DNA of 64,000 nt from Eledone cirrhosa (lineage: Eukaryota): positions 71,486,001-71,550,000 of the forward strand of contig OZ024744.1 of the NCBI GenBank assembly GCA_964016885.1. The letters are read 5' to 3'. Positions 8,001 through 45,524 of this stretch are shown here, one piece after another (position 1 is the stretch's first letter; each line of letters opens with the position of its first letter). The notes under the pieces are model-generated. The model was given only the letters and a program-made list of their open reading frames with translations. It searched no databases and was not told where the DNA came from. The position numbers were made by a program, and so were the translations under genes.

Positions 8001-8107
8001 GCTGACAATTGTTTCGTTGATCTGGTAGGTCTAGAACTCGCTAATCGCTTGATGTTGCGTCAATCGATCTCCAATATTTTGTTTACAACCAGTCAATACA
8101 TCAGAGC
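8001..8107 (-). ncRNA. Hammerhead-like motif with very long stem II and altered core
   Basis: Reverse complement: gct CTGATGTA ttgactggt...accagatcaac GAAA caattg TC agc. Confidence 0.5.
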
Positions 8108-9380
8108 GAATGGATATGAGAATAATACGCAAGGCATGGCTTTTATACAAGAGTGGTGTTAGACCAGAACAATAACATCAGTAACAAAATATCTAGATAG
8201 TGAGTAATTAAAACAATAACATCAATACTAGTAAGAAATAGAATATAATGACAAAACAAGCATGGTAAACAAACAGAGATGATACAAATGTATGAAGTGA
8301 CATGCGAAATCTACCATAGGGTACATTAAAAGTAGTAGTAAAGAGATGAATTAACGTAGATGAAGGGATAAATAATAAAATGTACTTAGAGTCAGATTTT
8401 GGAATCTACACTTTAAGTGCAATTATGAGAGATTTAGATACAAATGAGCTGTGGGTCTGAAACACGACCAACAATAAAACGGAGATTGAGTTATGGTTTG
8501 ACAGATAAGTGCTTGTAGTAGGTATTTTCTCCTGTTGTATCAACTTAGTGAGATTGATGGAGGAAGTGTATAGAGATTTATGATTCTATGGTAGCTGGTA
8601 TTAAGTGAAATTGTGGATTCAGTATGTTAAGGTTTAGGTGGTTTATTCTAAATTTTGGGATTGCTAGTTCGAATCATGGGGGTTTAGTTTTCACAACATC
8701 AATAACAAAATAGCGTATAATTAAGACAATAACATCAACAATAAAACATGCATGGTAAATATATAGAGAACATGATGAATAAAATTAGGGATAGGGTACA
8801 TTGAGATGATAATAATAATAATAAGAAGAAAATAAGAGTTTCAAAGGAGTGTAAGAGTAATAAGATAATGTACTTAGAATTAAGTTCATGGGTCCTAATA
8901 TGAGATATGTAGATATAATTGTGTGGTCCGAAAGAATAAACAACAGCAAAGACGAACTGGTCGTGTTTCAGACCCACAGCTCATTTGTATCTAAATCTCT
9001 CATAATTGCACTTAAAGTGTAGATTTCAAAATCTGACTAAAAAAAGTACATTTTATTATTTATCCCTTCATCTACGTTAATTCATCCCTTTATTACTACT
9101 TTTAATGTACCCTATGGTAGATTTCGCATGTCACTTCATACATTTGTATCATCTCTATTTGTTTACCATGCTTGTTTTGTCATTATGTTCTATTTCTTAC
9201 TAGTATTGATGTTATTGTTTTAATTACTCGCTATCTAGATATTTTGTTACTGATGTTATTATTCTGGTCTAACACCACTCTTGTATAAAAGCCATGCCTT
9301 GCATATTATTCTCATATCCATTCGCTCTGATGTATTGACTGGTTGTAAACAAAGTATTGGAGATCGATTGACGCAACATC
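8053..9380. repeat. About 420-bp inverted repeat (8053-8470 / 8958-9380), PLE pLTR-like; right arm ends where the Tx1-like LINE begins
   Basis: Arms are near-identical reverse complements. Confidence 0.85.
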
Positions 9381-11752
9381 GGCGACCCGGGAAGGGCTAT
9401 GGATTTCGATCCATACCTCGACGACCTACCGCGACTCTCGGACAGCAAGGCCAAGTTCTGCGAAAGGCCGATTTCAGCCGCTGAGATAGGGGACGCGCTG
9501 AGCCAATGCGGCAAACGCAAATCTCCAGGTCTCGACGGTCTACCCTACGAATTTTACGGCAATGCCAGACTTGATCCCCGGTCTCCTGGAAGCGGTCAAC
9601 TGCAGCTGGCAGCAGAACGGGAGAATTCCTAGTTCTGTGACCAGGGGCGTAGTCACACTAGTCAGGAAGGACGAGAATAAGGGGGATGACATAGGCAACT
9701 TCCGGCCCATAACTCTGCTAAACACAGAGTTACAGATTTTGGCCAAGGTGTTGGCAAAGAGGCTGGCGCTTGTCGAAAACCTGGTGGGAGAAGCGCTGAC
9801 ATGCGCAATCCCGACCAGGTCGATACACGAAAACCTCCACCTCATGCGATACATCGTAGAGAGGGCGTGGTGTAAACCCAGCTTCGGTGGGGCCCTGATC
9901 AACTTGGATCAGTCTAAGGCTTTCGATAGGGTTGACCATCGTTACCTGGATACGGTGCTCGAGGCGGCAGGATTCGGACCCGTGTTCAGGGGCTGGATTG
10001 CTGCAATGCATAACGGCAACATCTACTCAAGGGTCAAGGTGAACGGATACCTCTCGGAGCCGTTCCATATCATGCGATCCATCCGACAGGGATGCCCTCT
10101 CTCCTCCCTTCTGTACGTACTGACTCTCGAGCAACTATTGCGGAAGTTGGAGCTATTGCAGGGCATCCCTCTAGAACCGGGACTGCGGAAAGCGGCGTCG
10201 GCCTACGCCGACGACGTAACAGTAATGGTGTCGAGCACCTCGCACATCGAGGAAGTCGGCACCTTACTGAAGGAATACGAAAGTTTCACAGGAGCGAAGC
10301 TGAACTGGGACAAGTCCATCGGTTTGCAACTCGGATCGTGGAGAGCCAAACCGATGCCTTCCGATGGCGTCATCGGACGCTGGACGGAAGGACCGGTGAA
10401 GCTGCTCGGGGTCTAGTTTGGTCCGGACCTCCAGGTGGAGAAGAACTGGTACGAGGTGACGGCAAACTATCCTTGAAAGGTCGAGCGGAGGTGGCGAACA
10501 CTTTTATAGCGTCCGTCATCTACTACTGCTTGACCGTCGTGCCTTGTCCGTATTGCCTTGTCACCAAAATGAAGCGCGCGCTCTTCCAATTCCTTTGGAG
10601 GAAGCGGGCTCCTTTGGTGAGAAGATCCATCTGCTGCCAACACCCTTCCAACGGAGGGCTGGGGATGCCGTGGCTAACGATGCACAAACACGCGCTGGGG
10701 CTGCGGCAACAGGCTGTGGGCCCCGTTCGCGAGGCGAGCCTTCCCACGACTCGTCTCGCTGACCGATCTGCAGTCCTGGATCAAGCAAAGACCGAGGAAA
10801 ATGGGCGACTGGCACATCGAATGTGCTCAGGCGCTCACAGCCCTCTGGCAGGCGGACCCGGCGATCAGTGGAGACTCCACTTCATCATTCTATAGAGGGT
10901 TGATCCGCAGCAAGTGCGACGACGCGCTCGGAGAAACTCTAGGCGTGGAGGAAGACGAACTGGCCAGTCTGTTCGGTAGGACCTTCTGCCCGGGACCGAT
11001 GGACAACTTCCAAAAGTCCCTGGCCTGGCAGTGCTACCGAGGAGCTCTACCAGTTCGAGACAAGCTCTACAGACATGGGCGCCCGGGCAGGGACCCTTCG
11101 AAAAAGATCTGTCCGAGATGCGTGCGAGACGAAGAAACCGTCGCGCATGCATTCATACACTGCCCGAGCGTTACCGACCTGTGGGGCTATGTAGAACGAC
11201 TATTGTCGCGAGTGGAACCAGTCTAGTTGACCACCGAGTCCATTGTCATGATCAAACCGCCACCCTCCTTCAAAAACGAAGGAGAGGCGGTTTTCCTTTG
11301 TGTGATAGCTATGGCGAAAGAAGTTGTATGGTGGACGAGGTTAAAAGGGCTGAGGGCAGACACCTTTCTCTCCGGCCAACAACGGATTCTTTTTTTCAAA
11401 TACCACTTTGGAAGAAGAATCAGGATGGAGAGAGAGATGCTGTACCCCAGCAAGTTTTATGAAAGGTGGGTGAAAGTGGCGAGAATGGGCCTTCTCTCTA
11501 TATCAGCCTGTAGGTTGAGGAAAAAGAGGAAGAGAGGAAAGGGGTACAAACTCTTCGTACTCCTGGAGATGAGAGTTGCACATTTTTTCGGTGGTTTGTG
11601 TTACCCATATGAAATGTCTCCCCCTATTGGGGAAAATCGATTAACTTTTAAATTGTATTTGTGATAATATTTTACACGTTTTTATTGTATGTAAACTTCC
11701 CCCTTTGTATTTGTCCCCTTCTTTTGTGTCCCTGTGGCTAATAAAGAAACAT
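9381..11752 (+). mobile_element. 5'-truncated, disrupted Tx1/L1-clade LINE (RT plus C-terminal zinc finger)
   Basis: KSPGLDGLPYEFY, NFRPITLLN, LDQSKAFDRVDH, IRQGCPLS, YADD, GGLGMP, CPRC..EETVAHAFIHC; stops and frameshifts; tail ...gtggctaataaagaaa then (TA)n. Confidence 0.92.
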
Positions 11753-25000: not shown

Positions 25001-26900
25001 CCCTGGTTCTTAAAGAAATGGCGAATACGCCTCCTCATTCCCTCCAACCTAGTGGTGCTGTGGTCATAGACTGTGAAGAGAGCATCGTCACGATATAATC
25101 CGCCGCCCAGGCAAGGGATTTCATCTTTTATCTGCTTCAGCAGGAAGAGCCCAACCAGGTCCGTTACCTGTGCTGAGTCGCTGGAGCCCGTCATGATGTC
25201 AAAGTTATTTGGCCAATCACTCCTGGTCCAAAGGTTTCCTTCAAAGTGGATTAAGGTCTTTCTTGCTGCGTGGATGATGCTCACCTCCTCTCGGGTTAGG
25301 TCCGTATTGGACATCGCTAAAAGTAGGGCCTTATTGAGTACTATGGGTGAGATTGAGGAGTAGTAGCCTGCGATATCCAGTTAGATAAAGCTGGTCTTAC
25401 TTTTCTTATGTAGTATCTTAAACTATTCTATTCCCTCTCCCGTGCATGACCATTGCTGTAATCTAGTTTTTTTCCGAAGCTTGGGCAACATCCTATCTAG
25501 TATTCTTTTACTGACGATCCCTAGGGCAGATCTGGAGGGGGATATTAGTCTGACAGGGAGGTCGGACTCAAAGTTTGGCTTGTGATCTTTAAGGGTAATC
25601 CGCGCCTTCCTTGGTTGGTATGGGGCCGTCCTGTCCTCTATGCTGAGTCCAGATATAATCTTGTAAGCTGTCGCATTGATCTCATCCAGGGTAAATCCAG
25701 GTGTTTTTTTGTAGCACTTCCTCAGTTCCCTGAAAATCAGCTTATTATACAGTTCAGTGTCCATTTTGTATAGGTTGTTGGTTTTGTCAGCATGGACAAG
25801 TATTCCAGTTGTCTCTTTAAGTACTGTTATCCGGTTTCTCAGGTGTCTGAGGTACTCCTGACTTCTGGGTGGGTTTCCTGAGAATTTGAGGTATGATATG
25901 ATGTTAATCATCTCCTTTTCAAACTCCTCCATTAGTCTGTTGTTCCATAGTGACTTAAGTCCGCTACTGTTTGAAGTGCTCAACCCGTGGAGGAGCTAGA
26001 TAAATTTTGAGTATATGTTGGTTGTGTACCAACACCTCAGTATGCAGATTGGAGCACTCGACGAAGTGCGAAGGTTGGTTTGGTTACTCCGGAGTAATGT
26101 AAAATAAAATAAAATAAATAAGTTAAATGTTTAAAATTTGGCTTCGTTTATTACTGCTATATATATTTCGGTGACAGCCATCTTTGGCTGTGACCTCTTC
26201 AAGGCAGTCCGAATTAGTGTGGTAGAGACGAGTACACATGTTGTTGAGGTGTATAACTTTCTCAGTAATCTGATATGCCCAGTTCCTGGTTGGGTTGTTG
26301 TTTCATTGAGGAATTGGAATCATGTGAATTTGTTTATTTGGTTCCTCTACCACCTTATTCCTTCTACCACTTTATCATTTTTTGAGCTGATTCTAACATC
26401 AACACCACCACCAACATAAGAGTAGAGGTCAGATGTACTTAGCAATAACAAGGAAAAACCACTACAGATTGCCTTGCCTCAGAATGAATTTCTATAGACT
26501 TTTGACTGAGGAATGTTTTCACAACTGACCAATGAGAGGAGAAGATGTCCTCTGGCGCTGAAATTCGTTTGTTTAAATTCATATGATTCCAGTTCCTCAA
26601 TGAAACAACAACCCAACCAGGAACTGGGCATATCAAAGTATTGACAAAGTTATACACCTCAACAACATGTGTACTCGTCTCTACCACACCAATTCGGACT
26701 GCCTTGAAGAGGCCACAGCCAAAGATGGCTGTCACCGAAATATATATAGCAGTAATAAACGAAGCCAAATTTTAAACATTTAACTTATTTATTTTATTTT
26801 ATTTTACATTACTCCGGAGTAACCAAACCAACCTTCGCACTTCGTCGAGTACTCCAACCTGCATACTGAGGTGTTGGTACACAACCAACATATACTCAAA

Positions 26901-26905
<5 letters not shown>
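22090..26905 (-). mobile_element. Near full-length Naiad-type PLE with 3' pLTR, upstream direct pLTR segment (26001-26325) and inverted pLTR (26345-26905)
   Basis: pLTR copies align; hammerheads at 22143-22197 (-), 26153-26208 (-), 26698-26753 (+); (TA)n flanks. Confidence 0.9.
23515..25983 (-). pseudogene. Disrupted PLE RT plus GIY-YIG ORF
   Basis: ADKTNNLY, ITLKDHKPNF, GSSDSAQVTDLVGL, GLYRDD, VNFLDTTLNL, WYNPPY, CNCR..CP, YIGAT, CKLCL; stops and frameshifts. Confidence 0.9.
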
Positions 26906-26987
<82 letters not shown>

Positions 26988-31445: not shown

Positions 31446-32356
31446 GTGTTCTGGAATTTGGAATTTGGCCAATCTGTGGTGAGCATGGGTCATTAGATAA
31501 ATAGAGAGTGGTCATTAGTGTAACATTATGTTGACCAATGGTAATCATAGAAGGTTAACGAAATACATTAGGTGGTTCTGGGATATTTAGTTTGTTGGTA
31601 TTTGGCCAATCATTGGTCTTCTGGCTTTCAATATTTGAAATTTTACTTTTGTTATTTTACTTTACTTGTTCCCCTTTTTTTCTTTTTTTCTTTTAGTTTT
31701 TAGTTTTTTTCTTTGTTATTACTTGTCGCACTAGCTCTTTTTGATTACCAACTGTAAGGAGTACTCGATACTTCCCATAGTCTGACATGGCTTACTAGCT
31801 CTATACGGACGTTTAAATAAAATAAATATATAAATAAATAAATGGGGAGTGGTTACAAGTGCAAATCAATCTAATAGTAGAGAAGGAAGTATATGGGAGA
31901 AGGGGTAATGATCTGTACGAAAATAAAAAGGGATGGGAGGGGACATGTGTGCCTGCGTGTATGATATTTCCTTTAAAAATTTGTTGATATAGATAACTTT
32001 TTAAAAAAAGTTATTCTTAGAAACTAAAGCCCTGTATTGGAAAATAACGGCGATGCAAGTTTGTAATATTTCAAAGGTATTTCGTCCATATACATGCATA
32101 TACGTATACACTCACAAATATAGACACAACATAATGTGCACCCCCCGCACACGCATATATATATATTTTATATATTTTATATATATTATATATATATATA
32201 TATATTAGAAAGTGAGGTTTTTTTTACAAAATGAAAAATAACCGAGGTGTCCTACACGAGTGAAAGTATAAAGAAAAAGAGATGAAATCGAAAATGCAAC
32301 TGAAGTCTTATTTTTTTTTTTTTTTTTTTTTTTTAAATATATATATTTATTTGGTT

Positions 32357-32394
32357 CCTTTACCGGTTTCGCAGTTCTTCTGCTTTTCAAAAGG
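32357..32394 (-). ncRNA. Minimal hammerhead, U3-A8 variant; mirror copy at 38085-38122 (+)
   Basis: cctt TTGAAAA gcag aagaa ctgc GAAA ccgg TA aagg. Confidence 0.75.
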
Positions 32395-32924
32395 TGAGTT
32401 GAGATGGAGGGTCTGTGGTTTTTCTCACATCTGGTTGGTCTCTGAATGTTACTTGTTTTATATGGAAAAAGTGGCTCGAAATTCCAGGTTTTTCGAGAAG
32501 TAATTTGATTGGTTTGTCAATAATTATAATAAATTTCGCGCCAGTTCGCGTTACAATAGTTCTTCAAATAAGAGAGGGGGGGGGGGGGGGGAGAGGGTTG
32601 TCACAGGTTGGTTTTTCATATATGAGTGTTTGAATTTCTTTTTACTTGAAACAAAGAGGCTCACGAAGGCTTTTTTTTGGTTGGTTATAAATGAAATTTG
32701 GCTGTCATGTGAACAAGTTTTTATTACATTTTTGCGCCCTTATTTGGAAAACTATTCTGTAGTCTTTATAGTGAATGTTATGACAATGGAGAGATAGTGG
32801 TCAAGAGAAAAGGGATTGGGAGAAATGTTCTGGTTCAGTGAATATGGCCAGCTCGCCGGGGTGTCAGAGTTCAGATTTTCTATTGAGACTGAAGATATGT
32901 ATGTTTATTTGTGTGCTTGTGTGT

Positions 32925-33039
<115 letters not shown>

Positions 33040-33520
33040 TATTGGAAGATGATTCTATTAGTAGAGATGGGGGAGGGAGTTGTGTGTGTGTGTATATGGG
33101 TGTTATGTGTGTGTGTGCGAGTATGTTAAGATGGAGAGAATATATATTTTGTGTGTGTATATATATATGTGTGTAGGAAAGTGGTTCTATTAGTAGAAAT
33201 GGGGAGGGAGTTGTAGGTGTGGGGGTTGTTATGTGTGTGTATGGGTGTTATGTGTGTGGGAGTATGGTTAGCATGTTAAGATGAAGAGAATATATATATA
33301 TATATATATTGTGTGTGTGTGTATGTGTGTGTGTAGGAAAGTGATTCCTTTAGTAGGAATATTTTTGAATGAACATATTTTCCTTACTTTTTTGTGTTTG
33401 CTGTTGTATTGCCAGTGCAAACGTATGTTAAGGTTTATTTATTTCGGGTTTTTATTTTCTAAAGTAGAAGGTGTTATGTGTGTGTGTGTATGTCATATTG
33501 CGGTGTTGACATAATGTATA

Positions 33521-35848
33521 TTAAACCTTATTTACTGTTGGTCTATATTTTTGAATAAACATATTTTCCTTATTTATTCGCATTTGTTCTGTTGTATTGT
33601 TAGCGCAAAGGTAAAATGGGAAGACTTGGAATTTGGGTGTCTTATTACTTGCGCAAATGTCTAGATGTGCACTTAGTGGTATTTGTCTCGTGGTTGGATC
33701 TCGTAATTGTTGGCGATGAACTGTCATTCTGTTTCTGAGTGTGAGTTTAGTTTGTCCTATATAATCTTCATTGCATCCTTTACATTTAATGGCATAAATT
33801 AGATTTTTTGATGAGCAAGTGAAGTGATTTTTTACAGTAAAATTTTGTTCTGATTTAAATGTATACGTGTTGCCTTCAATGAGGTGAGTGCAGGTTCCAC
33901 AATTAGAGCGACCACATTTTTTGATACTTGGTTGTGGGTTTGTGGTAGGTAATTTGGCATTGGTGAGTAATGTTTTCAGTGATTTTGGTTGTCTTTTGCT
34001 TTTGATTATTTTGTGTGTTTCAAGGGCTTTTTTCATTCTTGGGTTTTGTTTTAGTAGTGGGATGTTATTGTGAATAGTGTTGTAAGCTTCCGCATTTCTT
34101 GGGTTGTGTGTTGAGATATATGATAGAATATTGGACGTACCTTGAATTTGTTTCTGTTTCCGTAATTCATCAATGCCTATTGCTTTAGCCCTTTCTATTC
34201 CATTATTTATTAGTAATAGTGGGTACTCTCTCTCAAGTAGAATTTCCTTTAATTCTTGAAGTCTTTTATTTCGCGTTTCATAATTGGAGACAATTGTGCA
34301 AATTCTTCTTGCTAGGTTAAAAGGAATGTTCGTCTTCGTGTGCTTTGGATGGTTGGAGGTGAATAGCAGATATTGTTTGGAATCTGTTGGTTTGTAGTGT
34401 ATGTCAGTTTCGATATTTGTGTCTTTTTTTGTGATTAAGATGTCCAGAAATGGGAGTTGATCTTGGCTGTATTCCATTGTGAATTGGATGTGGTTATTGA
34501 TGCCGTTTATTAAGTTTTTGAAATCCTTCAGTTGGTCGAGTGTGTGGGACCAAAGAATGAGGCAATCATCCAAGTAGCGTTTCCAATTCTCTGATAAATA
34601 TTTGTGGAAGTTCAATCCGTATTTTGATTTGGACTGTTCATATATCTGGACTTCTAAGTATGCCATGACTAAGTTGGCATAAGTTGGAGCGGCTTTTGTG
34701 CCCATCGCAGTCCCCGATATTTGCTTGTAAGTATTGCCATCGAAATCAAAAAAGTTGTTCTGTAGGATGAATTTTAATCCCTCGGTGATGAAGCTTTTTT
34801 CTATTCTGTCAGGTATCTCATTGGGATATTTCTCTAGCCAGAATCCTATTGCTTCTAGTCCGTATTGGTGTGGGATCGTTGTGTAGAGATTCACTACATC
34901 GAAAGACACAATAATAGTGTCGTTGTTGACATGTTTGGGGAGGTGGTTTAAGAGGTCCAGATCGTCTCTTACAAGGCTTGGTATGTGTTTCAGTATTGGT
35001 TTCAGTAGTATGTCTATAAAGTTGCTCAATCTGTGTGTTTCACATTGTGGGCCCGCTACAATTGGTCTTAATTTAAGGTCTGTGGGGTATTGTGTGTTCA
35101 CGCAGGCTGAGGTGGATTGTTTACAGGCATCGTTGATTATTTTACATTTGTGGATCTTCGGAAGTCCGTAAAGGTTGCTGGTTTTGTATTCAAAATTTGT
35201 TAAATAATCGCGTTCCTTTTTAGTTAGGTCTTCCTGGTATCGATAAATCAGTGTGTTTAATTTGGTCATTATTTTTGATTGCTGGTAGTTTTTTACTCTT
35301 TCATAGTAATTAGTATTTTGTAAGAGAGAGAACATAGAATTTTTATATTTTTCAGCCTCCATAATGACAACAGTACTTCCCTTGTCCGCTTCCTTAATTA
35401 CAATGTCCGTATTGTTTTTTAGTTCATGGATAATCTCCCATTCCCTTCGACTTGTGTTGGGTTTGGGTTTAGGTTGCGGTAGTTCATGGTATGGGAAAGT
35501 AGCTATGTGGTCACAAAATTTGTCCAGAACTCTGTTTCTACCTTTTGTTGGGTTGTAGCTGCTTTTATTCCGTACAATTGATTCGTCGTTATTCTCCTTG
35601 TCAAAGAATTCCTCTGTGAGACGTAATTTTCTACAGAAGTGTGAGATATCGTCATTTATCTCGTTGGGGTTAGGGTATTGTGGTGTTGGTGTGAATTTCA
35701 GACCTTTGGAGAGAATTTTTACTTGTTGGGCTGAGAGGTTTGTATTTGAAATGTTAATTATTTTCGGTTTTTCAACATCGGTTTGTGCTACCGGGTGTCG
35801 TGAGTCCTGTAGCCTTGGTCTAAAAAAAGGTTTTTTTGGAATGTTTTT
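33521..35848 (-). CDS. PLE ORF2: reverse transcriptase plus GIY-YIG endonuclease; frame open from 35848, first ATG only at 35362
   Basis: Hand translation of 35848-35363 has no stop: IINISNTNLS..ILSKGLKFTPTP...IVIKEADKGSTVVIM; then YGLPKIHK, RPIV, SFDVVNLYT, GTAMG, RYLDD, PFLD, CxxxxCxxC, IYAIKC..YIGQT. Confidence 0.93.
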   Translation of the reverse strand, partial: KNIPKKPFFRPRLQDSRHPVAQTDVEKPKIINISNTNLSAQQVKILSKGLKFTPTPQYPNPNEINDDISHFCRKLRLTEEFFDKENNDESIVRNKSSYNPTKGRNRVLDKFCDHIATFPYHELPQPKPKPNTSRREWEIIHELKNNTDIVIKEADKGSTVVIMEAEKYKNSMFSLLQNTNYYERVKNYQQSKIMTKLNTLIYRYQEDLTKKERDYLTNFEYKTSNLYGLPKIHKCKIINDACKQSTSACVNTQYPTDLKLRPIVAGPQCETHRLSNFIDILLKPILKHIPSLVRDDLDLLNHLPKHVNNDTIIVSFDVVNLYTTIPHQYGLEAIGFWLEKYPNEIPDRIEKSFITEGLKFILQNNFFDFDGNTYKQISGTAMGTKAAPTYANLVMAYLEVQIYEQSKSKYGLNFHKYLSENWKRYLDDCLILWSHTLDQLKDFKNLINGINNHIQFTMEYSQDQLPFLDILITKKDTNIETDIHYKPTDSKQYLLFTSNHPKHTKTNIPFNLARRICTIVSNYETRNKRLQELKEILLEREYPLLLINNGIERAKAIGIDELRKQKQIQGTSNILSYISTHNPRNAEAYNTIHNNIPLLKQNPRMKKALETHKIIKSKRQPKSLKTLLTNAKLPTTNPQPSIKKCGRSNCGTCTHLIEGNTYTFKSEQNFTVKNHFTCSSKNLIYAIKCKGCNEDYIGQTKLTLRNRMTVHRQQLRDPTTRQIPLSAHLDICASNKTPKFQVFPFYLCANNTTEQMRINKENMFIQKYRPTVNKV
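35787..35836 (-). promoter_or_regulatory. Putative -1 programmed ribosomal frameshift signal
   Basis: In-frame CAA AAA AAC CTT TTT TTA, 7-nt spacer, then hairpin GCUAC-A-GG...CC-G-GUAGC. Confidence 0.7.
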
Positions 35849-36960
35849 TCATTGGTATTATTATATCTAATGGTATTTCCCCTGTTGTTGTGTGGTCTTG
35901 TATAGAAGTTTCGGACGTATTGAGGTTCGGTTTGTTGATAGTCCGGGTTGTAGATTTGGTTCCTTTGTGTGGGTTGGGATCTACGGTTTTGGAACAGGCT
36001 CTGTGTGGGCAGGGGTCTACGGTTTTGGAATAGGTTTTGTGTGGGTTGTGATCTGCGGATCAGGTCCTGCCTTGTGTTCGGGGATCTTTGGTTTTTGTTA
36101 GTAGGGTTATAGTTTTGTCTATGGTTTCTGGGATTATCGTTATAGTTTTGCTGGGGGTATGTTGGACGTTTTGTTACTTTTTTTGTTATTTGTTGTGCAT
36201 GTGGTGTGTGAGTTTTAGTTTGTTTTAAAAATGGTTTACCTGTATGTTGTTCATTTTTGAAGTCTATTTCGTAGTTGTTGAACCAGGTGGCGTTTTTTTC
36301 CCATCGCTGGAGGGATGTTAGTTCTTCATCCTCACAGTTTTCTTTCCAAAGTTTTAGGGTTTTTTTGTAGAGTAGGCCTTCAGAGTGCTTTGAGATTTCT
36401 GTATCCATCTGTTGGTCGAGTGACTTGAATTTTTCTTCGTTGGAGTTGGCTCTTAATCGCAACAGTTCTATTTCTGTTTTAAATTTTTCCAATGCCATCT
36501 TTTCCCTAAGTCTTTGTTGGTTTTCTGGTTCATTTGGGATGGGTTTTATTTGGAGTTTTTTGGGGAGGATGATTGGGGTAGAGTTTAGCCACTTTTCATA
36601 TATGTCTGCTTTGCCATTATTCTTTAGGAGATTCCAAAGGGCGAATTTGCGGGTTGTGAGCTTTTGAGTCGATATGTTGATTAGGGTGTTTTTCACTGAG
36701 TGGACATCTCGTAGATTGGGTTCTAACGGTTGTTCAAGCTTTTGGAGCATTGCTGTTTCAATGGTTTCGATTAGCTTAGTTAATACTGGAGTAATATTCG
36801 TCTCTTGGGTATTTTCTGTTTCTTCGTGGGGTCCTTTTTTATAGATGTGTATTTGGTCCACTTTGTTGGTCAAAATTGAGAGTTTAGATGAAATCTCTTT
36901 GAGTTCATTTAAGATGTCCTGGTTCAGTGAGTTGTTGTTTTGTTGAGACTTTGGTGGCAT
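35788..36960 (-). CDS. PLE ORF1, 390 aa; predicted coiled-coil N-terminal part and Q/N/R-rich low-complexity C-terminal part
   Basis: Intact ATG-started ORF; heptad-like segments (ILNELKEISSKLSILTNKVDQI; LEKFKTEIELLRLRA); repeated RRSQPTQ.LFQN. Confidence 0.85.
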   Translation of the reverse strand: MPPKSQQNNNSLNQDILNELKEISSKLSILTNKVDQIHIYKKGPHEETENTQETNITPVLTKLIETIETAMLQKLEQPLEPNLRDVHSVKNTLINISTQKLTTRKFALWNLLKNNGKADIYEKWLNSTPIILPKKLQIKPIPNEPENQQRLREKMALEKFKTEIELLRLRANSNEEKFKSLDQQMDTEISKHSEGLLYKKTLKLWKENCEDEELTSLQRWEKNATWFNNYEIDFKNEQHTGKPFLKQTKTHTPHAQQITKKVTKRPTYPQQNYNDNPRNHRQNYNPTNKNQRSPNTRQDLIRRSQPTQNLFQNRRPLPTQSLFQNRRSQPTQRNQIYNPDYQQTEPQYVRNFYTRPHNNRGNTIRYNNTNEKTFQKNLFLDQGYRTHDTR

Positions 36961-37435
36961 TTTCGGTCTTCGTGTCGTGGGTATATATTAGAAAGTGAGG
37001 TTTTTTTTACAAAATAAAAATAAAAACCCGAAATAAATAAACCTTAACATACGTTTGCACTGGCAATACAACAGCAAACACAAAAAAGTAAGGAAAATAT
37101 GTTCATTCAAAAATATTCCTACTAAAGGAATCACTTTCCTACACACACACATACACACACACACAATATATATATATATATATTCTCTTCATCTTAACAT
37201 GCTAACCATACTCCCACACACATAACACCCATACACACACATAACAACCCCCACACCTACAACTCCCTCCCCGTTTCTACTAATAGAACCACTTTCCTAC
37301 ACACATATATATATACACACACACAAAATATATATTCTCTCCATCTTAACATACTCGCACACACACACATAACACCCATATACACACACACACAACTCCC
37401 TCCCCCATCTCTACTAATAGAATCATCTTCCAATA

Positions 37436-37544
<109 letters not shown>

Positions 37545-38206
37545 ACACACACACATACACACACACAAGCACACAAATAAACATACATATCTTCAGTCTC
37601 AATAGAAAATCTGAACTCTGACACCCCGGCGAGCTGGCCATATTCACTGAACCAGAACATTTCTCCCAATCCCTTTTCTCTTGACCACTATCTCTCCATT
37701 GTCATAACATTCACTATAAAGACTACAGAATAGTTTTCCAAATAAGGGCGCAAAAATGTAATAAAAACTTGTTCACATGACAGCCAAATTTCATTTATAA
37801 CCAACCAAAAAAAAGCCTTCGTGAGCCTCTTTGTTTCAAGTAAAAAGAAATTCAAACACTCATATATGAAAAACCAACCTGTGACAACCCTCTCCCCCCC
37901 CCCTCTCTTATTTGAAGAACTATTGTAACGCGAACTGGCGCGAAATTTATTATAATTATTGACAAACCAATCAAATTACTTCTCGAAAAACCTGGAATTT
38001 CGAGCCACTTTTTCCATATAAAACAAGTAACATTCAGAGACCAACCAGATGTGAGAAAAACCACAGACCCTCCATCTCAACTCACCTTTTGAAAAGCAGA
38101 AGAACTGCGAAACCGGTAAAGGAACCAAATAAATATATATATTTAAAAAAAAAAAAAAAAAAAAAAAAATAAGACTTCAGTTGCATTTTCGATTTCATCT
38201 CTTTTT

Positions 38207-38282
<76 letters not shown>

Positions 38283-39544: not shown

Positions 39545-40602
39545 TGGAAGAGGTAGGAAGAGTGCACCCGAGCATAAAGTGAAAGGGGCACCGAACGGGC
39601 GACTGCGCATTAACACACATAAGAGCGGTCACCTAGATGGAACCAACCGTAGCAAAAGTACAAGGACACGTAATCGCCACCGTAACGTCTTATGGTTCCA
39701 CCCCCCTACTCTCGGAGTGTGGCCTCCAACATACCCCGGATGTTCTTCGAAGCCTTAGAGAAGAACTTCCCGCCAACCATAGGTATAGAAAAATTCTTAA
39801 TAAGAACAATATAAAAATATCCTTCTCTACTACTCCTAACCTAGCAGACATCATAGGAACAACGAACCACAGTAAGATCACCAAGACACAGCACCTCGAC
39901 ACAGACGCACCTACACCTGACAATAACTATATCGGCCTTAACAACTCCCTGGCAGCATCCAATAGTGTTGGCAACGGCATCCGCAGACGCAACCAGCATA
40001 ACCGCGAAATGACTGGGGAACATGCAGGACATGACGTGCGGAATAACAATCGCACCACCCCGCGTGCTGTGGGTTGTAATGGTACTAACGACAGCTGCGG
40101 TAGCGTAGGTAACAACGTAGGCAGCAACAATGATAGCCTTACCGTGGGAAATAGACGGAACCGCGACAGAAATTGCAACTGCCGCGATAGAGGACGCTGC
40201 CCCCTTAGAGGATATTGCTTGACTGATAGGGTTATATATAGATGCACTATTACCAGCCACAATAGCGTTAAACATTATATAGGGGCTACCTCTGGCCCGT
40301 TCAAAATTAGGTTTCGAACACATCTCGACTCTTTCACAAATAGAAAACTAAGGCACTCCACTTCGCTCGCGGACTACATCACATCACTAAAGGACTTAAA
40401 CATCAGCTTCTCCACGCACTGGGAGATTTTCGGCAGGGCTGCACCGTACAACTTCAAGAGGAAATGCGATCTTTGCCTCATGGAGCTCTACCTCATCATA
40501 ACTGCACCCCACGAGCTCATCAACAGCAGAGCTGAAACAGCGATAAGTTGTACACATCGCTTAAAAATATCCTTCTTCAGATGGGTTAAGGATGAGAAGT
40601 GA
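39545..40602 (+). pseudogene. Naiad-type PLE C-terminal fragment (Zn-knuckle plus GIY-YIG), frameshifted near 39770
   Basis: RNVLWFHPPYSRSV in one frame, then HRYRKILNKNNIKISFS, CNCR..CPLRGYCL, YIGAT..FKIRF, CDLCL. Confidence 0.88.
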
Positions 40603-43689: not shown

Positions 43690-45524
43690 ATGTATTTCTT
43701 TATTTGCCACAAGGGCGCACAAGAAAAGGGGACAATACAAGGACATATGCTGGGGATTTTACATACAATCGTGTAAAAAATATTTTAAACAAACAAATTT
43801 AACAATCGAAATCCCCAATAAGGGGGAGGCGCTATAAATGGGTTGTTTAATACCCTGTAGATAAAACAACCCTCAACTTCAGGGGAGTGTTGTGCAAGTG
43901 CTCCTTTCCTCCTTTTGCTCTCATCTTCAACCTACAGGTTTATATTCAGAGAAGGCCCAATCACGCGGGGCATTTTTGCTACATTCACCCACCTTTCAGT
44001 AAATTTACTGGGTGCAGTGCTTCTCTCTCCGCTCTGATTCTCCTTTTAAAGTGGTACCTAAATAAGGGAATGAGTTGTTGTCTGGAGAGAAAGGCATTTG
44101 TCCTCAGTCCTCTCAATCTCGTCCAGCATATAATCTCTTTTACCATAGTCACTACACAGAGGAAAACCGCCTTTCTTTCGTTTTTGAAAGAAGTTGGCGG
44201 TTTGATCCTTACTATGGACTTGGCAGTCAACTGAATTTGTCCCATATGCGACAGCAGTTGTTCTGCGTAGTTCCACAAGTCAGTTACGCCTGGGCAGTGT
44301 ACAATTGCGTGCAAGACGGTTTCAATGTCCTGCTCGCATCTTGGACACGTCCTATTGGAAGGATCCCTGCCGGGGCGTCCGTGCCTGTAGATCTTGTCTC
44401 GAACTGGTAGAGCTCCTCGGTAGCACTGCCAGGCCAGGGATCTCTGGAAGTTGTTCATGGGTCCCGGGCGGAAAGTCCTGCTGAACAGACTGGTGAGTTC
44501 ATCGTCTTTGACGCCTAGAGTCTCTCCAAGCAAGTCGTCGCACTTGTAACGTACTAACCTCTATAGAATGTCGAAGTGGAGTCTCCACTGATTGCTGTGC
44601 CCGCTTGCCAGAGGACTGTGAGCGCCTGAGCGCATTTAATGTGTTAGGCGCCCATTTTCTTCGGTCTCCGCTTGACCCAGGACTACAACTTCGTCAGCGA
44701 GATAAGTTGCGGGAAGGCCTGTCTCACAAACGGGGCCCACAACGGTTGTTTGGTGAGGAATACCTGGAGATGCGTGCCTCAGCGCGTGTTTGCGCATCAT
44801 CAGCCACGGCATTCATAGCCCTCCGTTGGAAGGGTGCTGACAGCAGATGGATCTCCTCACCAGTGGAGCCTGCTTCTTCCAAAGGAATGGAACAGCATGC
44901 GTTCCATATTGGTGAGGTATTCACGGGGACAAGGCACGACGGTCAAGCGGTAGTAGATGACGGACGCTATGAAAGTGTTCGCCACCTCCGCTCGACCTTT
45001 CAAGGATAGTTTGCATCTGCCTACTTCTTGGTGAGCGCAAACAGCTTGGCTGTGACCTCGTTCCAGTTTTTCTCCACCTGGAGGTCCGGACCGAACCAGA
45101 CCCCGAGCAATTTCACCTGTCCTTCCGTCCAGCGTTCGACGACGCTGTTGGACGGCATCGGTTTGCTTCTCCATGTTCCGAGTTGCAAATCGACAGACTT
45201 GTCGGGTTTCAGTTTTACTCCTGTGAGCCTTTCGTATTCCTGCAGTAAGTTGCCGATTACCCCGATTTCCAAGTTTTCCGACACCATTACTGTTACGTCG
45301 TCGGCATAAGCCGACGCCGCTTTCCGCAGTCCCGGTTCCAACGGGATGATCTGCAGAGACTCCAACTTCCGCAGTAGTGACTCAAGAGTCAATACGTACA
45401 GAATGGAGGAGAGAGGGCATCCCTGTCGGATGGAACGCGTGATTGCGAACGGCTCCGACAGGTAGCCGTTCACCTTGACCCTCGAGCAGATGCTGGTGTG
45501 CATCGCTTTGATCCAGCCTCTGAA
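43690..45524 (-). mobile_element. 5'-truncated, disrupted Tx1/L1-clade LINE, same family as 9381-11752, flanked by (GATA)n on both sides
   Basis: IRQGCPLS, YADD, LSLKGRAEVANTFIAS, CPRCEQDIETVLHAIVHC; tail cccttgtggcaaataaagaaa. Confidence 0.92.

Follow-up and report, generated by a model that had tools for sequence, protein, structure and literature searches.

A probable -1 ribosomal frameshift on a conserved U UUU UUA heptamer joins the two open reading frames of an endonuclease-bearing Penelope-like element

Endonuclease-bearing (EN+) Penelope-like elements (PLEs) are the sister group of telomerase reverse transcriptase (RT). Canonical EN+ PLEs have been called single-ORF elements (ORF, open reading frame) (PMC8557442, excerpts), and PLEs with one ORF and an endonuclease have been contrasted with those that have two ORFs and no endonuclease (PMC6431247, excerpts). 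The legend of Fig. 1 in Craig et al. 2021, which uses CC for coiled-coil and names no clade, mentions that a PLE ORF1 may be set apart by a frameshift accompanied by a pseudoknot (PMC8557442, excerpts). This legend may already include the Neptune group. It presumably refers to the EN-deficient Athena/Terminon elements. Here we describe a Neptune-like, endonuclease-bearing PLE with a helical ORF1 and an ORF2 in the -1 frame, carried on the minus strand of a 64,000-nucleotide (nt) stretch of the Eledone cirrhosa genome (assembly GCA_964016885.1, contig OZ024744.1, positions 71,486,001 to 71,550,000; hereafter the window). A literature search yielded no description of a slippery site in an EN+ PLE, and excerpts of PMC3846280, PMC5718144, 10.64898/2026.07.22.740005, PMC13282606 and PMC7943196 describe no such frameshift; since the Terminon work, the 2007 Athena work, Arkhipova 2006 and Repbase lay outside the search, priority is uncertain.

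The element resembles the Neptune group in its RT, its CX2-5CxxC linker, a GIY-YIG endonuclease with CCHH residues, pseudo-long terminal repeats (pseudo-LTRs) in tandem or inverted arrangement and a hammerhead motif (PMC8557442, PMC3846280, excerpts). RT motifs 3-4 and the endonuclease resemble the Neptune rows of Figs S1-S2 when compared by eye from the text, the tree used below containing no named references. Whereas canonical EN+ PLEs have a single ORF, the family of the window element has an ORF1 of 400 amino acids (aa) that overlaps the RT frame at a -1 offset. This overlap also sets it apart from a killifish Neptune element with a short, non-overlapping ORF1 of unclear meaning (PMC12602865). 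Esterases have been attributed to Neptune-like PLEs of fish and molluscs (PMC5408684), whereas ORF1 has no match in Pfam, esterase families included. With the two-ORF PLEs of Craig et al. 2021 Fig. 1 the element shares a helical ORF1 upstream of a PLE RT and a candidate frameshift junction, but it differs from them by its endonuclease, by (TA)n ends at many chromosomal sites and by having no family-wide pseudoknot (PMC8557442, excerpts). The EN-deficient Athena and Coprina elements lack an endonuclease and have their 3' end on telomeric repeats, whereas the window element has a GIY-YIG domain and (TA)n at internal sites; in Naiad and Chlamys the endonuclease is N-terminal to the RT, whereas here it is C-terminal. 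The Chlamys-2/5_cBra elements, EN+ PLEs too, share the upstream ORF1 and the hammerhead, but they belong to the N-terminal-EN group and have a gag-like zinc knuckle in ORF1, and no frameshift signal is described for them in the excerpts of PMC8557442. Outside the PLEs, the gag-pol junction of human immunodeficiency virus 1 (HIV-1) offers the same U UUU UUA and the same succession of a structural ORF and an enzyme ORF (PMC7618472, excerpts), but the window family has no stable conserved stem-loop 5-9 nt downstream, its homologues preferentially place the stop 10 codons away, and its ORF1 has no demonstrated Gag homology.

On the minus strand of the window, ORF1 (35788..36960) runs from an ATG at 36960 to a TAG at 35788. 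ORF2 (33521..35848) lies in the -1 frame relative to ORF1, opens right after a TGA at 35851-35849 and comprises 775 codons that encode the PLE N-terminal motifs, the RT, a Cys linker and the GIY-YIG domain. Its first ATG is codon 163, no GTG or TTG precedes it, and CTG occurs at codons 50 and 108; the GxKF and DKG motifs of the PLE-type RT N-terminus are encoded before that ATG. All of this agrees with an initial annotation of the locus, which had also predicted a -1 frameshift, except that its 162 codons free of ATG, GTG and TTG are a property of this copy: the family has a GTG at ORF2 codon 20. The annotation had placed the shift on two tandem heptamers, and both indeed stand in register in this copy, U UUU UUA at 35821..35827, where it encodes Phe-Leu of ORF1, and A AAA AAC, a heptamer of the MMTV type, at 35830..35836. 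Only the former is conserved.

The separation of the two frames is no peculiarity of a single locus. At least 238 copies in the 3.0-Gb genome bear the junction, as counted by matches to anchors flanking it, and among the 100 of these 238 matches that were listed the junction has the same length in 93, is 3 nt longer in 1, 1 nt longer in 5 and 1 nt shorter in 1, the +1 and -1 variants sitting in homopolymers. Contigs or reads from four runs of three organisms have no indel listed at the junction. All 29 other top-scoring copies of the family (family A) retain the -1 offset and T TTT TTA, and among 20 sampled copies 7 combine the 775-codon ORF2 with a full ORF1 frame (409-410 codons), so that the family is young and the split form its majority form. 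The split is real, family-wide and no assembly error; alignment of the genomic copies and inspection of the homopolymers, the checks that the annotation had suggested, agree on this.

The offset and the heptamer extend beyond family A. Two relatives in the same genome were compared, family B (about 56-60% aa) and family C (about 50% aa). Both keep the offset and the heptamer. In family B, 13 of 20 fetched loci stand at the -1 offset, while 6 loci, picked for long open frames, are fused and 1 is at +1; TTTTTTA is present in 27 of 28 family C loci, namely in those that reach the junction. Among metagenome or metagenome-assembled genome (MAG) loci of the same RT group, all eight in which the junction could be read carry an in-register heptamer, which is T TTT TTA in five (L032, L033, L036, L039, L042; 37-47% identity), T TTT TTG in two (L109, L046) and A AAA AAC in one (L038), where the upstream DNA is too short to show ORF1. 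Six of the eight group with families A-C in a quick RT tree (support of 95-98 in the SH-like approximate likelihood ratio test), L046, L036 and L038 on long branches, while L039 and L042 were too short for the tree and are placed by similarity only. A heptamer of the X XXY YYZ type is thus present in register within the -1 overlap, against a background of 2 in-register T TTT TTR in 7,149 codons outside overlaps. No relatives were found in viral contigs.

The same signal can be followed at the protein level, in a sample that is larger but is backed by DNA at ten junctions only. Out of 154 ORF1 homologues, 96 have a tail of at least 90 residues, and 69 of these contain Phe-Leu in their last 35 residues, as opposed to 6 of 96 in the preceding 35 residues and to a mean of 8 and a maximum of 17 in shuffled tails. 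The residue before Phe-Leu is never Gln, Glu, Lys, Met or Trp, none of whose codons ends in T (0 of 69; expected share 21%; nominal p 9e-8). As far as protein sequences can tell, the Phe-Leu pattern reflects a T TTT TT(A/G) heptamer with which a tail ends that cannot otherwise be aligned. On the ORF2 side, the called starts of 120 homologues are scattered, many of them inside the conserved N-terminal motif, and no start is conserved.

What surrounds the heptamer in the window copy is largely its own. The copy differs from the 20 sampled copies at 18 positions, five of which (35836, 35830, 35828, 35789 and 35776) fall in the 61 nt of the overlap (binomial p 1e-5 for clustering), and these five bases, different from those of all 20 sampled copies, account for A AAA AAC and a seventh T, for the TAG stop and for the UGUUG of a proposed pseudoknot. 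A AAA AAC occurs in none of the 20 sampled copies and is absent from the contigs and reads checked; the heptamer pair has a single match in the genome, and UGUUG is found in four copies genome-wide. The TAG (35788..35790) stands where the family has TGG, so that the family ORF1 reads through a Trp codon to a stop at 35760-35758; the 390 aa given for ORF1 by the initial annotation apply to this copy and the 400 aa to the family. The hairpin that the annotation had put forward as stimulator (35787..35813, minus strand), preceded by a 7-nt spacer, folds at -8.1 kcal/mol, and an H-type fold of 5+5 bp that involves UGUUG is conceivable. It can also form in family A with a U-G pair, but other families do not have it, and its stability relative to shuffled sequences is unremarkable (z -0.47 and -0.43 in the family, -0.63 and -1.99 in this copy); no pseudoknot was found in the family A junction. 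The tandem A AAA AAC and the CGACA/UGUUG pseudoknot were therefore rejected as family features, and since the family hairpin is no stronger than shuffled sequences, the stimulator first proposed is not that of the family. No sub-lineage sharing the alleles of this copy was found in the genome, the ORF1 allele pair and the junction each matching once. As an observation on the copy itself, each of its private overlap changes (35776-35836) resembles a stronger shift signal, and no second copy has the same set.

Taken together, these comparisons make it probable (roughly 0.85) that a -1 ribosomal frameshift on U UUU UUA joins ORF1 to ORF2, which, with the same confidence, would be the only reading common to all these families. 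The element is a recently amplified two-ORF PLE in which most ribosomes probably stop at the end of ORF1, which would yield ORF1 with a short basic tail, and in which a minority probably slip back by one base on U UUU UUA to make an ORF1-RT-endonuclease fusion. The fusion is predicted at 380 + 766 = 1,146 residues, close to the approximately 1,150 of the initial annotation, whose interpretation survives as to the EN-bearing two-ORF PLE, the fixed -1 offset and U UUU UUA, and falls as to the tandem heptamer and the pseudoknot as a family mechanism. The slip itself and the ratio of its products are what we infer, as likely, from the observed overlap, the register and conservation of the heptamer, the scatter of ORF2 starts and the domain content. 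Some points weigh against a frameshift. No conserved 3' stimulatory structure was found in the clade, only L032 and L036 of 12 junctions reaching z < -2, with differing folds; a weak, long-range or protein-bound stimulator may nonetheless exist. A G often follows the heptamer, which then reads as a splice acceptor (Gly, Glu or Asp is the next residue in 49 of 69). Finally, a start-like NTG-G lies about 30 nt downstream of the heptamer in family A (GTG) and family B (ATG).

The last of these points belongs to the explanation that ORF2 has a start of its own. Close to its end, ORF1 has an Arg-Trp codon pair that reads in the ORF2 frame as AUG or GUG with a G after it; reinitiation there, or a shorter RNA, would produce a separate RT-EN protein. 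Besides the GTG of family A, the site is an ATG in family B as well as in L232, an older copy, and a CTG in L032, L033 and L042, four homologues (P0002-P0005) are called with a start near it, and a distant EN+ clade has an ATGA stop-start overlap. However, any base in front of TGG makes a start-like codon, so that the match is automatic; the NTG is absent in family C, L036, L039, L109, L046 and the window copy; and a separate start leaves both the in-register heptamer and the scattered ORF2 starts unexplained. We consider it improbable. Splicing, which we regard as very unlikely, would use TTTTTTAG as acceptor and an upstream donor to remove all or part of ORF1 and so bring ORF2 into use. Families A and B, like five metagenome loci, do have an AG after the T run, and introns do occur in PLEs (PMC8557442, excerpts), but the AG is missing from family C, L109 and L046, at least 16 of the 69 homologues continue with a residue whose codon cannot begin with G, and an acceptor would need no fixed register in both frames. 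Four genomic copies with a non-T in the T run are point mutants and not spliced joins, a weak argument given that PLEs retain introns.

More doubtful still is slippage of RNA polymerase on the T6 run, by which one added base would give a minority of transcripts with a fused frame. The runs are prone to slip, as 5 of 100 listed family A copies have gained a base in the A5 or T6 run, yet polymerase slippage needs no codon register whereas the register is fixed, and the fused copies of family B come from a C run, as ordinary homopolymer mutation would give. (These family B copies, L212-L215, L222 and L223, each carry a single fused ORF of 998-1,181 codons through changes in the C run.) An assembly error or dead mutation in a truly single-ORF element is next to impossible: fused copies exist (5 of 100 listed in family A; 6 of 20 in family B, where they had been picked for long frames), but they go back to different homopolymer slips, most copies in three host families have the offset, distant relatives share it, and the four runs list no indel. 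A separate start, splicing and polymerase slippage are each compatible with some of the families but not with others.

If the frameshift on U UUU UUA is accepted, the question arises what triggers it. The usual -1 signal combines a 5-9 nt spacer with an RNA structure (PMC7618472, excerpts), and the hairpin or pseudoknot of the window copy is unlikely to be what triggers the shift. What is kept among the homologues is a spacing: the Leu and the stop stand exactly 10 codons apart in 24 of 69 and in no case closer, and the decapeptides in between share on average 1.0 of 10 residues, so that their length is kept and their sequence is not. The distance from the slip site to the ORF2 motif varies widely. 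Queued 80S ribosomes are spaced by about 30 nt. Ribosomes queued behind a stop lie about 27 nt apart in bacteria (PMC7544508, excerpts). The trigger we tentatively favour, while holding it doubtful, is termination at the ORF1 stop, where a ribosome would stand one footprint downstream of the heptamer, or possibly two footprints in family A; such a ribosome would block the trailing one exactly on the slippery site, and RT output would then rise with the ribosome load on ORF1. Extended to a large EN+ PLE clade, as a -1 shift stimulated by the ribosome at the stop 10 codons past U UUU UUA and without RNA structure, the proposal is a shade more doubtful still. In a subclade with a spacing of 19-20 codons, a Trp codon is found where the 10-codon stop would be, which looks as though readthrough had moved termination to a second stop one footprint farther along, and the change from TGG to TAG in the window copy restores the exact 10 codons, the commonest spacing among homologues.

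Several findings stand against this trigger. The spacing is 20 codons in family A, 19 in B, 23 in C and 1 in L036, and 45 of 69 homologues are not at 10 codons, the test assuming that Phe-Leu stands for TTT TTA. The 10-codon state is clustered on the tree (9 changes versus 20 when shuffled), and the excess at 20, 21, 30 and 31 codons is weak (13 of 42, p 0.03, with rows that are not independent). An RNA fold of fixed length could hold the 10-codon spacing instead of a ribosome queue, and the heptamer alone, or with weak family-specific folds, would be an alternative trigger. If the queue proposal is true, it would amount to a natural collision-programmed frameshift needing no RNA structure, and the slip-to-stop spacing bears on whether ribosome collisions can program a frameshift in animals; our literature search found no description of a stop-spaced frameshift trigger. 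An ATGA stop-start at the 10-codon stop was considered and rejected, as the last residue is compatible in 19 of 24 cases, about the level expected from composition, and L039 and L046 have no such ATG. A pattern search of the host for further 10-codon families returned an abundant repeat that has TTTTTTA and a stop 10 codons away but no ORF1/ORF2 homology, which was set aside as chance. This repeat (L229-L231, L235, L244, L250-L252, L254), often found in close pairs, is unrelated to the PLE.

The ORF1 protein is modelled with five long helices (residues 9-237) followed by a disordered tail rich in Asn, Gln and Arg; the confident part spans residues 90-240, with a predicted template modelling score of 0.43. 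A fold search gave generic helical matches only (best Z 9.1, root-mean-square deviation 6.1 over 124 residues), and the Atlas neighbours include Gag clusters that all score 0.85 or less, which is a lead only. From its position and its basic tail, ORF1 would probably be a helical RNA-packaging scaffold. The term gag-pol-like, used in the initial annotation, is only an analogy as far as Gag is concerned, there being no Pfam or clear fold match. Homologues of ORF1 form 479 clusters at 50% identity (E-value up to 0.001). If the frameshift is true, a widespread EN+ PLE group would have a structural protein family that has so far escaped annotation, along with an expression switch of the gag-pol kind, and the catalogued form of many RT ORFs would lack the true N-terminus.

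The whole unit spans 32205..37023 on the minus strand, over which full copies align, and consists of an upstream pseudo-LTR tail, ORF1, ORF2 and a 1.3-kb 3' region (pseudo-LTR) ending in (TA)n at 32205. The terminal motif ends at 36988 and at 32205, and the 3' ends of other copies likewise enter (TA)n. Within ORF2 the RT core (34526..34966; residues 295-441) matches RVT_1 with an E-value of 1.3e-06, slightly short of the curated cut-off, the C-x4-C-x2-C linker of the Neptune/Nematis type (33890..33916) was identified by reading the sequence, and the GIY-YIG endonuclease with its CCHH residues (33539..33805) by a domain match (E-value 2.9e-06) together with sequence reading, all on the minus strand. 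Membership in the PLEs is further indicated by the RT N-terminal motifs and 819 homologues, and in their EN+ branch by the GIY-YIG domain with its CCHH finger, the pseudo-LTRs and a putative hammerhead. The latter, a minimal hammerhead-like motif with a U3-A8 core and a palindromic stem III (32357..32394, minus strand), was found by inspection, and in 20 copies 31 of its 33 instances agree as far as stem I, while an Rfam search returned no match, hammerhead included; the U3-A8 variant has already been reported for PLEs (PMC4209133, excerpts). An inverted pseudo-LTR copy follows at 37017..38213 on the plus strand, 98.1% identical to 32267-33458 and ending in (TA)n, and contains a second hammerhead-like motif (38085..38122, plus strand), again found by inspection. 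In other copies the 3' region also lies in tandem upstream of ORF1, which is the usual pseudo-LTR arrangement.

Two further groups of PLEs have two ORFs, apparently coupled in other ways. In a separate EN+ clade (L083-L106, records WLWD01), about 28% identical to ORF2, ORF1 frames of 200-430 codons end on G GGU UUY, with a stop 0-3 codons past it (e.g. L088:720-767) and a hairpin whose inner stem varies in pairs, as judged by eye from single folds. Unlike the junction of the window clade, this one apparently has a textbook-looking -1 signal. In linker-type PLEs of the records JGI858J16261 (L056, L058, L060, L061, L063, L065), upstream ORFs of up to about 700 codons have a stop overlapping or just after the ATG of the RT frame, which suggests termination-reinitiation instead of frameshifting; the endonuclease is seen in L056, L058 and L063, while L060, L061 and L065 are incomplete. 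As these distant loci, too, have two ORFs, the two-ORF layout may be common in linker-bearing PLEs, with at least three modes of coupling. Among the homologues retrieved, L108-L123 and other bacterially labelled sequences are animal-type retroelements in bacterial MAGs or symbiont assemblies, probably host contamination.

The window holds other repeats. A 321-aa frame at 39637-40602 on the plus strand has no Pfam match, and its C-terminal part is GIY-YIG-like with a Cys linker and a final CxH; it is probably the 3' piece of a Hydra-type PLE. Two long inverted matches lie at 10017-11447 and 44010-45495 (450 nt at 84%, 550 nt at 78%) and are probably copies of another repeat family. Finally, inverted repeats of about 336 nt at 97-98% identity lie at 8051-9380 and 25997-26909, with 656 and 243 nt between their arms, and are possibly fold-back elements or inverted pseudo-LTRs.

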